Source: Fimbriimonadales bacterium
Lineage (GTDB): Bacteria; Armatimonadota; Fimbriimonadia; Fimbriimonadales; Fimbriimonadaceae
Direction of reading: 5' to 3'
DNA length: 64,000 nucleotides
Assembly: GCA_038210535.1 (NCBI GenBank)
Contig: JBBQWO010000007.1
Span: forward strand, 47,766-111,765
Made by a program: the position numbers and the translations under genes. A model generated the notes under the pieces. It saw nothing but the letters and a program-made list of their open reading frames with translations, was not told where the DNA came from and did no database searches. Shown here piece by piece: positions 27,178 through 50,308 of this stretch. How positions within the stretch are numbered: the first letter of the stretch is position 1; each line of letters opens with the position of its first letter.

Positions 27178-27362
27178 CCCGCTCTATCTGGCGGTGAAGC
27201 GCAGTGGCCAACTGTAGAGAAGCAACTATAAGGGGAAATTCTCGCGAAAAGGAAAGCCTTTGCCTGCCGCAGGTGGTGGTATTCGCTAAATCCGAGTTAC
27301 ACTGTAGTTGAAACTGTGTGCGCTGCCTGGTGCTGCGTGGACTCCGCTACAGAAGAACTAAC

Positions 27363-27938
27363 ATGATCACACTTGCAATCGCTTCTTTAATTCTCGCTCA
27401 AGGCAGCGCTGCTGTCGTGTGCCCCATGACCGGAGGTGCTTCGCCCGAGATGGGTAAGGCTGTCGACTACAACGGCGTCCGCTACACCATGTGCTGCGGC
27501 GGCTGCGACGCCCCGTTCAAGAAGGATCCGGCGAAGTCGCTCAAAAGCGAAGCGCTGAAGGGCAAGCTTGTCGGCATTTCGCTGTTCGACCCGATCAGCG
27601 GAGCGCGTATCACCGAGAAGGCAGCAAAAGGCGGATTCAGCGATTTCGATGGCGTTCGATTTTATTTCGCGAGCACTGACAGCAAGTCGAAGTTCGATGC
27701 AGCACCCAAGACCTTCGCAAAGGCTCCTGAGAAGGAAGCCCTGTATTGCGTCGTCATGGGCCACGACCTGAAGGATTACGCGACGGCAGGTGGCTATGTG
27801 GATATCGAGACCGTTCGGTATTACACTTGCTGCGCCGACTGCAATGCGGCCCTGAAAAAGAATCCTTCACTTGCGGCTAAGGCCAAGTCGGCGGTTAAAG
27901 CAGTCGCCGCGATGGACGCTCCAGTCAAGAAGAGCTGA
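27363..27938 (+). CDS. Secreted protein with three YHS/TRASH-like repeats
   Basis: I prefer ATG 27363 ('MITLAIASLILAQGSAA').
- Repeat 1: 'VCPMTGG...VDYNGVRYTMCCGGCDAPFKKDP'
- Repeat 2 (Cys-less): 'DPISGARI...DFDGVRFYFASTDSKSKFDAAP'
- Repeat 3: 'YCVVMGHDL...DIETVRYYTCCADCNAALKKNP'. Confidence 0.6.
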   Translation: MITLAIASLILAQGSAAVVCPMTGGASPEMGKAVDYNGVRYTMCCGGCDAPFKKDPAKSLKSEALKGKLVGISLFDPISGARITEKAAKGGFSDFDGVRFYFASTDSKSKFDAAPKTFAKAPEKEALYCVVMGHDLKDYATAGGYVDIETVRYYTCCADCNAALKKNPSLAAKAKSAVKAVAAMDAPVKKS

Positions 27939-27960
27939 CACTCTGATCCTGTTGCGAAAG

Positions 27961-27985
27961 CCCTCGGCAGTTTGACTGCCGAGGG
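27961..27985 (+). terminator. Hairpin after the YHS gene
   Basis: CCCTCGGCAG (27961-27970) pairs with CTGCCGAGGG (27976-27985), with loop TTTGA, followed by 'tgtactatttgt'. Confidence 0.55.
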
Positions 27986-28020
27986 TGTACTATTTGTGGG
28001 CTACCCACAGTTTCCTTCCT

Positions 28021-28659
28021 ATGTTCTCTCTGTCGAAACTCTCCCTGACTCTGGCCGCCTCCGGGATTGTTGCCGGCGCACTGGCCCAGGACGATGAATC
28101 GGGTCCGGTCAAGCTCGTTCCGACGTGAGCGGGCTGTGCCGGTGAGGCAAGATCGCTCCGTGAGGGCGAAGTGGCAACGCAGTGGCATCTCAACCTCAGG
28201 TTCCTCCCAGGGGTGGAAAGAGCTGCGCGCTACCGGTTCACTCTGGATTACCGCTTCGACCCGAAGGTGACGATAGGGTTGGAGGCGAACGGGCTCGACC
28301 AGCTTTTGCCTCGCCTAACTTGGTTTGTCACGCCCGCTACGCAAAGCATGCCGAGTGTGGTTGCGGGAATCACCGGAGACCGCCTCTCGACTCCCACCGG
28401 TCAGGCGATGTTCGTGACGTTTAGCAAGTCGATCAACGATGTCGTGACTCCGTTTGTCGGGTTGAAGTACGGCTTGGATCAACAGGCGGTGGCGTTTCCG
28501 TTTGGTGCGAATTTCTCACTTGGCCAGAGCACCTTTCAAGCGCTCTACGATGGGAACGGCACCCACCTTATCCTGACCCAATCCGCGAAAGGCATCAATT
28601 ACAGCTTTATGCTCGCGCGTATGCGGTTTCCGGGCATCGGGATCTCTTATGGATTTTAG
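28021..28659 (+). CDS. Candidate exported selenoprotein: small outer-membrane beta-barrel-like protein with an in-frame TGA (28126-28128) in a U-A-G-C context
   Basis: The track starts at GTG 28171. In the same frame, ATG 28021 encodes 'MFSLSKLSLTLAASGIVAGALAQDDESGPVKLVPT', then TGA, then 'AGCAGEARSLREGEV', which runs straight into the tracked ORF with no other stop. The C-terminus '...FPGIGISYGF' has the alternating-hydrophobic, terminal-Phe OMP signature. Confidence 0.5.
28127..28158 (+). other. Candidate SECIS-like hairpin 3' of TGA 28126
   Basis: Folded by eye. GAGCG (28127-31) pairs with CGCTC (28154-58), C34-G51 and T35-A50 pair, and UGCC (28137-40) pairs with GGCA (28146-49). The apical loop is GGUGA. 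Confidence 0.35.
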
Positions 28660-28660
28660 A

Positions 28661-29275
28661 GTGCGGAACTTTCTCGTTCTCTCGCTTACGCTCGCTGCCG
28701 TTCCGGGGCAGGCTCAGAGCGAAGCTCGTTGTCCGTTGTGAGCGGCTGGCGGATTCGGGGCCAGTTCGGCCGCGCAAGAACCATCTCGATGGCTGTTCTC
28801 CAGCGTTTGGGTGCCAGGCTCGGTCACGGAGGGTGAGAGCTTTCTCTGGTATCGGGCCAGCGCACGCCTGCAACTCGGCACGGCATTTCTTTGGAAGCAA
28901 CGAGCCTTCCGAGGTCTTGCAAGCTACACCCTTGCGTCGGAGGGCTCACGAACGCCCGCCATCAACGTTGGGGCTGGTTTGCAAGGCATTGGCACCGGGA
29001 ACCCCGGCTATTTCGCGGTGGCTGAGAAGAGCTTTGCGACCCATATAGGAAGCGTGAGCGCGTACTTGGGCTTGGGCCTCAGAAGCAACGAGAACCATGC
29101 CCACATGCTGGGCGGGGCAAAATTCACTCCTAGCCTGAGCAAGTGGACGATGGGGGTTCAGTTGGATGGGCACAACGTGCACCCTTTCGTGACGCGCGAT
29201 TTCGATAGTTTTACAATAGGCATGTACTTGGTTAACCTGAAGTCGCCTGGGATCATGCTTAGCAAAAGGTGGTGA
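28661..29275 (+). CDS. Candidate exported selenoprotein, paralog of 28021-28659, with an in-frame TGA (28739-28741) in a C-P-L-U context
   Basis: The track starts at GTG 28811. In the same frame, GTG 28661 lies 1 nt after the upstream stop. It encodes '(M)RNFLVLSLTLAAVPGQAQSEARCPL', then TGA, then 'AAGGFGASSAAQEPSRWLFSSVWV', continuing into the tracked ORF. It ends '...GIMLSKRW'. Blocks shared with gene 1 include P-S/A-V/I..G, F...KS, Y.GLG, GA.F and DG..H. Confidence 0.5.
28742..28773 (+). other. Candidate SECIS-like hairpin 3' of TGA 28739
   Basis: Folded by eye. GCGGC (28742-46) pairs with GCCGC (28769-73), and UGGC (28747-50) pairs with GCCA (28760-63). The loop is GGAUUCGGG. An alternative apical fold pairs GGCC (28759-62) with GGCC (28768-71), loop AGUUC. 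Confidence 0.35.
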
Positions 29276-35752: not shown

Positions 35753-36928
35753 GTGAATGAAAGGAGCGGACACTGTTCATGGGCTGGTAATCGCTGTATC
35801 ATCTATCTTATGCTTGCGATCATTGCTGCGCTGACCCTGGGGCCTACCCTCGATCAGAAGATACAAAGTGTGCTTCCCACTGCCAAGGAAGACAAGTGGC
35901 TACAGATTCCTTGGCGAACGAGCCTGATGAAGGCACGAGCGGACGCTCAGCAAGCGGGAAAGCCACTGTTCCTCTGGATCATGAACGGCAGCCCAGTCGG
36001 CTGCACGTGAAATAACGGCCAGTTGGACCGTGCGTTCACTTTTGCCGATCAGAGAATCATCGACGTTCTCACTAAAGAATTCATTCCCGCAGTTGGCAAC
36101 ACCCACGAGTTGCAGAACCAAAAATCTCCCGCCGGGAGCTGGTTCATGTCCGCGGCTCAGCTCGTCAATCCGCGTGTGCTGGACAAGACGACCGCTCAAG
36201 GTTTCTACGTCGTGGCGGCCAACGGCCAACCGTACGGATTCAACAATAACCGTGATCCGGAACGCGTGCTCGACTTTATTCGGAAGAACGGCTCAAGCTT
36301 TAAATCGTCTCCTCCGCCTCCCGCGACTATCGCCGAGTCAGACCTTGCTGCCTCCTTTACTCGGAAGGCTTCCGAAACCGTGAGCACTTTGCGCGCCTTT
36401 ACAAGGATCAAACCCTTGCCCAAGGATTGCGATGTGCTGAACCATAGTGTCGGGCGCGATCACGTTTGGATTTATCCATCCGACCTCGAGCAGGTTGTGG
36501 GACGAACAGGCAAGTTCGATATGCCGGTGCAGTTGGCGACCCGCCTCGCCCGCTACCACCTTGTGGACAATGTCCGAGGCGAGCCTTCCTTCTGGACTCC
36601 TGACGAGGTGAAGAAGTCGGCCTTTCAAATGTGGCCCAAGGGTGGTGGAGTGTTTGCCTTTGCTGGCACCTACGCGATGCAAACTGCAGATAAGCAGCGG
36701 GGGCTGCGTGGGACGCTCGAGGGCGAGATGCGGATAACCGGAGGGTCCCTGTCGCGATTTCGGGCCTATGGCGAGGCCAAGGCATGGGGTGCTGGGCCCT
36801 ATACGCCGCGCCCACCATCGGGAGAGTTTCCTCTGGTGTTTGCCTTCATCGACGTGAACGATGAGTTCTCAAAGGTGACACCGCCACAAGCGGCGGCCTA
36901 CGGTGACGGAGAGTATCGGAGGCCCTAG
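35753..36928 (+). CDS. Candidate selenoprotein: membrane-anchored or exported thioredoxin-fold-like protein with an in-frame TGA (36008-36010) in a G-C-T-U-N context, plus an unknown 300-aa C-terminal domain
   Basis: The track ORFs 35753-36010 and 36023-36928 are in the same frame. They are separated only by TGA and the sense codons AAT AAC GGC CAG. The joined sequence reads '...WRTSLMKARADAQQAGKPLFLWIMNGSPVGCT[TGA]NNGQLDRAFTFADQRIIDVLTKEFIPAV...'. That is the layout of a Trx-fold active site. The start could be GTG 35753 or ATG 35810. Confidence 0.5.
36015..36031 (+). other. Candidate SECIS-like 17-nt hairpin 3' of TGA 36008
   Basis: ACGGCC (36015-20) pairs with GG(A)CCGU (36025-31), where A36027 is bulged. 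The loop is AGUU. It begins 4 nt after the TGA. Confidence 0.3.
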
Positions 36929-49914: not shown

Positions 49915-50308
49915 TGGTGTTGCCTCCAGATGCCAGGGAGCCGCCATCGTTTTGCGAAAGCGGTCTCCAAGGGAGGCCTCTCCGCGATCCCTCCGCCGGT
50001 ACTAACCGGATCAGGTGTTTGGGGTCTTTTCGGCACTTCCACCGAAAACTCTCAGCCATCGTGGCTCCCCCTGCGGGCGAATTCCTGTAATCAATCTCTA
50101 TTTTAGCCGCCAAAACGGCTTCGCGGTCAAAAAGTTGCCGGGCGGCGGGTAACCCATGGCGTTTCCGCTTGTAGGCAGAGCCGCGTGCTCCGGCACTTAG
50201 CATTGTGAAAAGCGCGGTAGGCTTCATGCCGGAGATGCCCCAAAGTGAGTACAGATTAAATTTTCTCCACCCTTTGAGTTGTTCTTGTTCGTACTTATCT
50301 TCAAGCAT
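49901..50308 (-). CDS. Doubtful hypothetical ORF upstream of the pseudopilin
   Basis: 135-aa ORF. The 5' half is noticeably AT-richer than its surroundings. I recognise no motif, and a TTGACC-19-TAAAAT promoter-like site lies inside it. It may be non-coding leader. Confidence 0.25.

Follow-up and report, generated by a model that had tools for sequence, protein, structure and literature searches.

The 64,000-nucleotide (nt) stretch of DNA analysed here (the window) carries two adjacent genes, gene 1 and gene 2, whose reading frames are each interrupted by one TGA codon shortly after an N-terminal signal peptide. On comparative sequence evidence, these in-frame TGAs are almost certainly read as selenocysteine (Sec, U). 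The source of the gene pair is a Fimbriimonadaceae-like bacterium of the phylum Armatimonadota. The best explanation, to which a probability of roughly 0.85 is assigned, is that the two are intact tandem paralogous selenoprotein genes in which a hairpin recodes the UGA, with a proposed soft-metal role for the tether that bears the Sec. Each product is predicted to be a small outer-membrane-type beta-barrel in which the Sec forms one half of a CxxC-type motif (UxxC for gene 1, CxxU for gene 2). The features of the window and of the related loci are listed in Table 1.

Both genes, their coordinates and the two TGAs had been proposed in an earlier reading of the window (the original prediction), and translation bears out all of these positions. 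The frame of gene 1 contains the TGA as its sole internal stop, in the context LVPT-U-AGC, and the frame of gene 2 likewise contains only one, in the context ARCPL-U-AAGG. The gene 1 TGA is residue 14 past a plausible signal-peptidase site between AGALA and Q, and the gene 2 TGA is residue 9 past a site between GQA and Q, the same distances that had been predicted. The gene 1 product reads MFSLSKLSLTLAASGIVAGALA up to the cleavage site and QDDESGPVKLVPT-U-AGCAGEARSLREGEVATQW... after it, while the gene 2 product reads ...LVLSLTLAAVPGQA up to the site and QSEARCPL-U-AAGGFGASS... after it. The C-termini of the two proteins are aromatic (...SYGF and ...SKRW). The frame of gene 2 is open from GTG 28661, the start given by the original prediction; ATG 28649, which overlaps the 3' end of gene 1, is an equally good or better start and is matched by an ATG at the equivalent position in the closest relative (locus L001), and gene 2 may begin there instead. 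The claim that TGA is not reassigned agrees with the window, in which TGA is an ordinary terminator: of 42 open frames that are 250 codons or longer, 12 end in TGA. The G+C content of the window is 57%.

The TGA of gene 2 is conserved throughout its family. The protein search returned 56 relatives of gene 2, nearly all of which are called as starting just past the position of the TGA. A genomic scan using one genome per species identified 41 loci, all belonging to Armatimonadota (Fimbriimonadaceae, Fimbriimonadales and metagenome-assembled genomes (MAGs) labelled Chthonomonas) and including the complete genome CP021423.1. The TGA follows a conserved Cys-Pro-Leu in 42/42 distinct gene-2 sequences, which represent every locus that covers the site and approximately 40 species-level Armatimonadota genomes, and its flanks are conserved as CPL before and AGG(F/Y) after. 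A hydrophobic, signal-like segment is seen by eye upstream and in frame in 40/40 loci, and 31 of these pass a crude hydropathy test when the first start codon in frame is used. There is no homologue that merely starts at the downstream GTG and lacks anything before it. Downstream of the TGA, the frame continues for 169-178 codons in 39/40 loci and for only 41 codons in L045.

The aligned column in homologues, which the original prediction had marked for inspection, contains either a TGA or a cysteine (Cys; TGT or TGC where DNA was read). Cys occupies the gene-2 column in the full-length relatives P0042, P0046, P0103, P0113, P0153, P0169, P0207 and P0223, with the motif spelled CPLC in P0042, P0046, P0103, P0153 and P0169 and CPIC in P0113. 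P0042 and P0046 read ESEARCPL-C-VAGGFGASS with Cys in place of the TGA. Two loci of the scan are unusual. L045 (position 10070 onward) keeps the conserved TGA and has a TAG 41 codons later, which could reflect a pseudogene or faulty assembly. L032 (JADZEW010000026.1) is titled Methanoregulaceae archaeon, and this contig is probably mis-binned because its gene-2 signal peptide and downstream hairpin region are almost identical to those of L029, a Fimbriimonadaceae MAG.

Of the two families, that of gene 1 is the rarer. Its TGA is conserved in four sequences, namely the window and loci L001 (a Fimbriimonas sp. MAG), L006 and L050, and the latter three read ...PT-U-AGCAGEAR... with signal peptides before the motif. 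The same codon is TGT or TGC in L004/L005, L051 and L052, and Cys forms spelled PT-C-AGC are found in P0003, P0115 and P0124 as well as in fusions with YHS domains. In seven further loci, a gene-1-type copy contains a pair of in-frame TGAs spaced by 9 nt (VPT-U-TG-U-PGEG), giving the motif UxxU. The representative-protein search also returned P0164, which reads PA-C-VG-W-PGEGQFL; here the second position of the motif, Sec in the UxxU forms, is Trp, whose codon (TGG) is one base off TGA. Comparison of the gene 1 and gene 2 profiles using hhalign gave a probability of 96% and an E-value of 2.4e-9 over 195 aligned columns, and the gene-1 TGA falls on the first Cys of the gene-2 motif, meaning that a single CxxC appears as UxxC in gene 1 and as CxxU in gene 2. 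By this profile comparison the two genes are distant paralogues, in agreement with the tandem paralogy and the two motifs originally proposed. Judged across the sequences compared, the conservation of the TGA in both genes is far more than expected by chance.

A predicted selenocysteine insertion sequence (SECIS) follows each TGA in the form of a 17-nt hairpin with a stem of 6 base pairs (bp) and a 5-nt NGUNN loop. The original prediction had asked whether a SECIS-type element is present at these two sites, and both genes have a covarying hairpin in accord with the bacterial SECIS (bSECIS) model. In an alignment of 40 gene-2 sequences (A2, columns 19-35), the stem begins 15 nt past the UGA and the loop reads RGUUC with invariant G26 and U27. 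This helix is 95.4% paired and exhibits compensatory changes at 6/6 pairs, examples of which are GCAUCC/GGAUGC, UCAGUC/GACUGA and UCCGCC/GGCGGA, with the encoded amino acids altered. Its covariation score was reached by none of 500 shuffles, pairing falls to 29-51% in controls with a slid 3' partner, and RNAalifold independently predicts the identical helix. For the gene-1 type, an alignment of ten Sec-form sequences (four UxxC and six UxxU; A6, columns 28-44) gave a helix that is 96.7% paired, with compensatory changes at pairs 28-44 and 30-42 and a covariation score again reached by 0/500 shuffles. The window has CGUGA as this loop, and the UxxU forms have AGUUC or GGUGC. From a UGA in the first motif position the loop start is 30 nt away, and from one in the second it is 21 nt away; the hairpin is therefore placed identically with respect to the motif in the UxxC, CxxU and UxxU variants. 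In UxxU copies a single hairpin lies downstream of both UGAs, at 30 nt and 21 nt respectively. The helix is missing from the Cys forms, including L057, the sole gene-2-type Cys form for which DNA is available.

The bSECIS model calls for a loop of 3-9 nt, a stem of at least 4 bp and 16-37 nt between the UGA and the loop, with a G in the first two loop positions followed by a G or U early in the loop (PMC13188914), and an energy of -7.5 kcal/mol or lower was used as a further criterion. The 5-nt loop, the 6-bp stem and the spacing of 21 nt (gene 2) or 30 nt (gene 1) all lie within these limits. The energy of the isolated hairpin is -8.0 kcal/mol for gene 2, -7.2 to -8.0 kcal/mol for gene 1, which is borderline, and -4.4 kcal/mol for L001. 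When only the four UxxC sequences are considered, RNAalifold prefers a longer hairpin starting from the UGA (28127-28158), which on those four sequences stands as an alternative; the addition of the six UxxU sequences favours the downstream hairpin, whose placement relative to the motif matches that in gene 2. A scan of the window against Rfam at the gathering threshold identified only a tRNA-Met and a thiamine pyrophosphate (TPP) riboswitch, with no SECIS or tRNA-Sec family.

These data bear directly on whether the TGAs are instead true stops, leaving either two pseudogenes or two short leader open reading frames (ORFs) followed by barrels that are translated from the internal GTGs 28171 and 28811. 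Gene callers and the NCBI annotation do start the proteins downstream of the TGA, and the folding of the individual window regions is not significant, both as this explanation would expect. A barrel started at either GTG would however be without a signal peptide, the TGA with its flanking codons and frame is conserved in every locus, the Cys forms are continuous proteins, and the hairpin covaries, in part through changes that alter amino acids. Termination at the TGAs is thus already contradicted by the comparative sequence data and is considered highly improbable. The UGAs are very likely recoded, as Sec or, with less likelihood, as Cys.

The two proteins do not match any Pfam or NCBIfam model at E-values up to 1. 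A profile search of 1.84 billion representative proteins returned only 206 relatives, and those examined include Cys forms with CP(L/I/F)C or PT-C-AGC motifs and YHS-barrel fusions of 389-418 amino acids (aa). An AlphaFold2 model was obtained for the natural Cys form P0042 using a 60-sequence alignment (mean predicted local distance difference test (pLDDT) score of 76). The model consists of a signal helix, a linker (residues 14-54) that is disordered and includes the CxxC motif, and 12 beta strands, and the pLDDT of the barrel is mostly 84-93 with one block at 63. The barrel spans approximately 155 residues and the linker approximately 25-35 residues. The best matches to this model in the PDB are outer-membrane barrels, mostly 12-stranded, and include KdgM, FapF, NanC and a designed 12-strand barrel; the TM-score is 0.51/0.62 for KdgM (4fqe), and the structural matches range from 0.46 to 0.62 at 9-15% identity. 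Each gene is accordingly predicted by modelling to encode a 12-stranded barrel that resembles outer-membrane barrels, and together with the signal-like N-termini this supports the earlier description of the products as exported outer-membrane-type proteins.

The gene directly upstream of gene 1 encodes a predicted exported protein with YHS and TRASH domains, and is separated from it by a terminator-like hairpin (Table 1). This inverted repeat at 27960-27986 could separate or attenuate transcription of the YHS gene versus gene 1. A YHS homologue adjoins the gene-2 homologue in L008-L011, and in L021 only a weak match was found (E = 9e-7). YHS repeats and a gene-1-type barrel are joined in one polypeptide in L051, L052, P0116, P0126, P0127 and P0130 (389-418 aa), and a thioredoxin-fold gene with a WATWCxxC motif follows the L051 and L052 fusions. 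The YHS/TRASH protein of the window (27318..27938) is likely to be a functional partner of both barrels. The commonest neighbour of the barrel gene is a TlpA/ResA-like thioredoxin, found near it in 11 loci in all: five Armatimonadota loci have the order gene 1 (UxxU), TlpA/ResA-like gene, gene 2 (CxxU), and six others have a TlpA-like gene within approximately 5 kb. In L030 and L036 an ArsR/SmtB metalloregulator precedes the operon (79.5 bits against a cut-off of 55). Between regulator and operon, L030 encodes a 25-residue peptide with 10 Cys (MSITKCPCCEGECTCPKECPNCDCC), and the end of a Cys-rich ORF lies there in L036. The TlpA-like protein of L030 also contains a weak YHS module. A His/Met-rich neighbour in L021 was considered as CopB and dropped, having no Pfam hit.

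From the YHS/TRASH, TlpA-like and ArsR/SmtB context we infer that the motif handles a thiophilic metal together with the YHS protein and the reductase, and soft-metal handling as the function is given slightly less than even odds. In the mechanism proposed, a short SECIS hairpin within each ORF recodes the UGA, and comparative sequence evidence shows this step. An outer-membrane barrel with an even number of strands has both termini in the periplasm, and therefore the selenol/thiol pair would be located at the barrel mouth, on a tether in the periplasm. There it would bind or relay a thiophilic metal or metalloid ion, with copper(I) as the leading candidate, and exchange the ion with the YHS/TRASH protein of the periplasm. 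The pair would be held in its reduced state by a TlpA/ResA-like thiol-disulfide reductase, and the barrel would provide either a route across the outer membrane or an anchor in it. A more elaborate and rather speculative version has the Sec tether act as the hand-off site, or as a gate selective for metals, in a small porin-like channel for thiophilic metals (such as Cu(I), possibly Hg, Cd or As) that is fed by the YHS/TRASH protein and reset by the TlpA-like protein. In that version the family would have explored UxxC, CxxU and UxxU around one hairpin of fixed position, and the UxxU hairpin would drive two recodings 9 nt apart, possibly mixing Sec and Cys by means of tRNA-ReC.

The same genes with the same SelB/SECIS recoding could instead use CxxU/UxxC as a catalytic redox centre and not as a metal ligand, the barrels then acting as an outer-membrane-tethered selenol-thiol oxidoreductase or peroxidase that is recycled by the TlpA-like reductase. 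Most known CxxU/UxxC selenoproteins are thiol-based oxidoreductases (PMC13188914). The frequency of the TlpA/ResA-like thioredoxin as a neighbour also fits such a role, whereas the barrel is without a thioredoxin-like fold, and a connection with metals is indicated by the ArsR/SmtB regulator, the Cys-rich peptide and the barrels fused to YHS/TRASH repeats. TlpA itself is known for reducing the cysteines of copper sites (the TlpA, ScoI and CoxB proteins). A purely redox role is a serious rival for the function, if on balance an unlikely one.

Several observations weigh against the interpretation of the pair as hairpin-recoded selenoproteins with a metal-handling tether. The isolated hairpin is only marginally stable and its support is comparative, not thermodynamic. 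Single-sequence folding past the window TGAs is no better than that of shuffles (z from -0.07 to -1.07), and covariation is relied upon instead. There is no selA, selB, selD or tRNA-Sec in the window or in approximately 650 kb of related loci, and the machinery is assumed from literature at the phylum level; specifically, ARAGORN identified no tRNA-Sec in the window and 41 loci, and tblastn searches of the window and all loci using E. coli SelA, SelB and SelD returned nothing. The proteins match no Pfam outer-membrane family and the structural matches are modest, with a TM-score of about 0.5. For the metal function, the linker of P0042 is unmodelled (pLDDT <50), more than half of the loci show no synteny, and the arguments come exclusively from neighbourhood and domain fusions.

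With respect to the machinery, Chthonomonas calidirosea T49 is listed as a Sec user with three selenoproteins (PMC5029168 Table S2), and Armatimonadota MAGs encode Sec-containing group 4 hydrogenases (PMC13582414). In the latter work, selABCD were screened across the Sec-type hydrogenase genomes as a whole, and 5/5 Armatimonadota genomes with UXXU hydrogenases carry both a canonical tRNA-Sec and tRNA-ReC-like genes (PMC13582414). The tRNA-ReC-like genes raise a further explanation, in which a SelB-compatible tRNA of the tRNA-ReC (selC*) type inserts Cys at the hairpin-recoded UGA in one or both positions. The seven UxxU loci, with two UGAs 9 nt apart and one hairpin, are in keeping with it. 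Those five genomes also carry the canonical tRNA-Sec, however, and the upkeep of a costly UGA and hairpin across approximately 40 species merely for Cys is hard to explain because forms with a Cys codon exist and do without the hairpin. Insertion of Cys is thus regarded as improbable, and Sec remains the preferred reading of the UGAs.

The window also contains a third candidate selenoprotein gene, in which a conserved TGA again adjoins a Cys, as would fit a host that decodes Sec. Its product reads ...GKPLFLWIMNGSPVGCT-U-NNGQLDRAF..., where the part after the TGA is the start of a 301-aa ORF. Its 42 protein relatives all have their called starts past the TGA, and the TGA and the GCT-U-NNG motif are kept in 4/4 relatives for which DNA was read (L053-L056, of which one carries the label Poribacteria). 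Only 5 nt separate the UGA from a small hairpin (ACGGCC-AGUU-GGACCGU), and no Pfam or NCBIfam match was found for the protein. A regular-expression scan of the loci for thioredoxin- and peroxiredoxin-type Sec motifs gave only noise.

Table 1. Features of the gene pair, of the surrounding window and of related loci (positions without a locus prefix refer to the window)
Feature	Position	Strand	Details
Gene 1	28021..28659	+	ATG 28021 to TAG 28657-28659; ~212 codons including Sec; by translation
Gene 1 parts	28021-28086 (signal peptide)	+	Signal peptide, short linker with U-A-G-C, beta-barrel domain; by translation
Gene 1 predicted Sec codon (TGA)	28126..28128	+	First CxxC-type motif position; partner Cys codon 28135-28137
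Gene 1 predicted SECIS hairpin	28153..28169	+	UCGCUC-CGUGA-GGGCGA; loop starts 30 nt past UGA
Gene 2	28649..29275	+	ATG 28649 (or GTG 28661) to TGA 29273-29275; by translation
Gene 2 parts		+	Signal peptide, linker with C-P-L-U, beta-barrel domain; by translation
Gene 2 predicted Sec codon (TGA)	28739..28741	+	Second CxxC-type motif position; partner Cys codon 28730-28732
Gene 2 predicted SECIS hairpin	28757..28773	+	GGGGCC-AGUUC-GGCCGC; loop starts 21 nt past UGA
YHS/TRASH exported-protein gene	27318..27938	+	Pfam YHS PF04945, E = 1.2e-9, plus TRASH domains; directly upstream of gene 1
Terminator-like hairpin	27960..27986	+	12-bp stem; between YHS gene and gene 1; pattern match of a consensus scan only
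Third candidate selenoprotein gene	35810-36928	+	TGA 36008-36010; conserved TGA beside Cys
TPP riboswitch	49970-50081	-	Rfam RF00059, 62.9 bits, above gathering threshold
UxxU copies	L017:4249-4305(-), L021:8299-8355, L023:7608-7664, L030:1125-1181, L033:8043-8099, L035:3559-3615, L036:8738-8794		Two in-frame TGAs
YHS-barrel fusions	L051:4428-5669, L052:4380-5621		413 aa; three YHS/TRASH-like repeats and gene-1-type barrel, Cys form PT-C-AGC
Five-gene cluster with metalloregulator	L030:545-2934 (same layout in L036)		ArsR/SmtB, 25-aa 10-Cys peptide, UxxU barrel, YHS-plus-TlpA/ResA-like reductase, CxxU barrel

The pair adds a well-supported selenoprotein family with three motif variants from the poorly studied phylum Armatimonadota. 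Its members are mis-annotated in public databases as N-terminally truncated hypothetical proteins, for which a concrete re-annotation rule can now be given. A Sec on the tether of a small outer-membrane barrel is an unusual location and fold for Sec chemistry, and its link to a YHS/TRASH, TlpA and ArsR context suggests that selenium assists the trafficking of metals in the cell envelope. The occurrence of Sec at either motif position, or at both, with one fixed hairpin also forms a natural experiment on the tolerance of SECIS spacing and on the conversion of Cys to Sec.

The catalogue of May 2026 lists 119 selenoprotein families and subfamilies (PMC13188914 Table 1), and none of the listed descriptions is of a small outer-membrane barrel with an N-terminal CxxU/UxxC. 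A literature search likewise found no description of this barrel selenoprotein family, and the original statement that no family of this type had been described therefore agrees with the catalogue and with the lack of an NCBIfam or Pfam model. The genes represent a new selenoprotein family that uses the known, standard bacterial recoding mechanism. As in bacterial genes with a bSECIS inside the ORF (E. coli fdhF type; Zhang and Gladyshev model per PMC13188914), the UGA stands beside a Cys in a CxxC-type motif that has Cys homologues, and a stem-loop with G then U at loop positions 2 and 3 is found 16-37 nt downstream. The pair differs from them in belonging to an uncatalogued family and in its short 17-nt hairpin, one copy of which is used for two UGAs by the UxxU relatives.

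Outer-membrane beta-barrels that contain Sec are also found among the TonB-dependent receptor (FCYXU type) and GSU2204/MtrB-PioB selenoproteins, and the TonB-dependent type shares the CxxU motif. Neither of their NCBIfam models hits the window proteins at E-values up to 1. TonB-dependent receptors and MtrB are large barrels of unrelated families, whereas the barrel of the window is small (~155 residues, 12 strands) and has its Sec on an N-terminal tether outside the barrel. The small 12-stranded porins KdgM and NanC and the FapF barrel are similar in predicted strand number and size and are the best fold matches, but share only 9-15% identity with no Pfam match and have no CxxC or Sec tether; the modelled resemblance may reflect only generic barrel geometry.

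Among the selenoproteins that handle metals, MerT-like proteins (C/SxxU), P-type ATPases (UxxC), SO_0444 Cu/Zn efflux proteins (UxC), YHS proteins of NF041384 (GxU) and the CopZ family all use Sec in place of Cys in a soft-metal motif in a transport or chaperone role, and an association with YHS domains is common to them and the window pair. They belong to other folds and families and their models do not hit the window proteins, for which metal binding is proposed from context; the YHS protein of the window has no Sec and scores 14 bits against NF041384 (cut-off 70). Finally, the maturation of copper sites by TlpA, ScoI and CoxB resembles the present system in placing the gene for a periplasmic TlpA/ResA-like reductase beside that of a protein with a Cys pair in a copper-related context, but here the target would be the tether of an outer-membrane barrel, not ScoI or CoxB.

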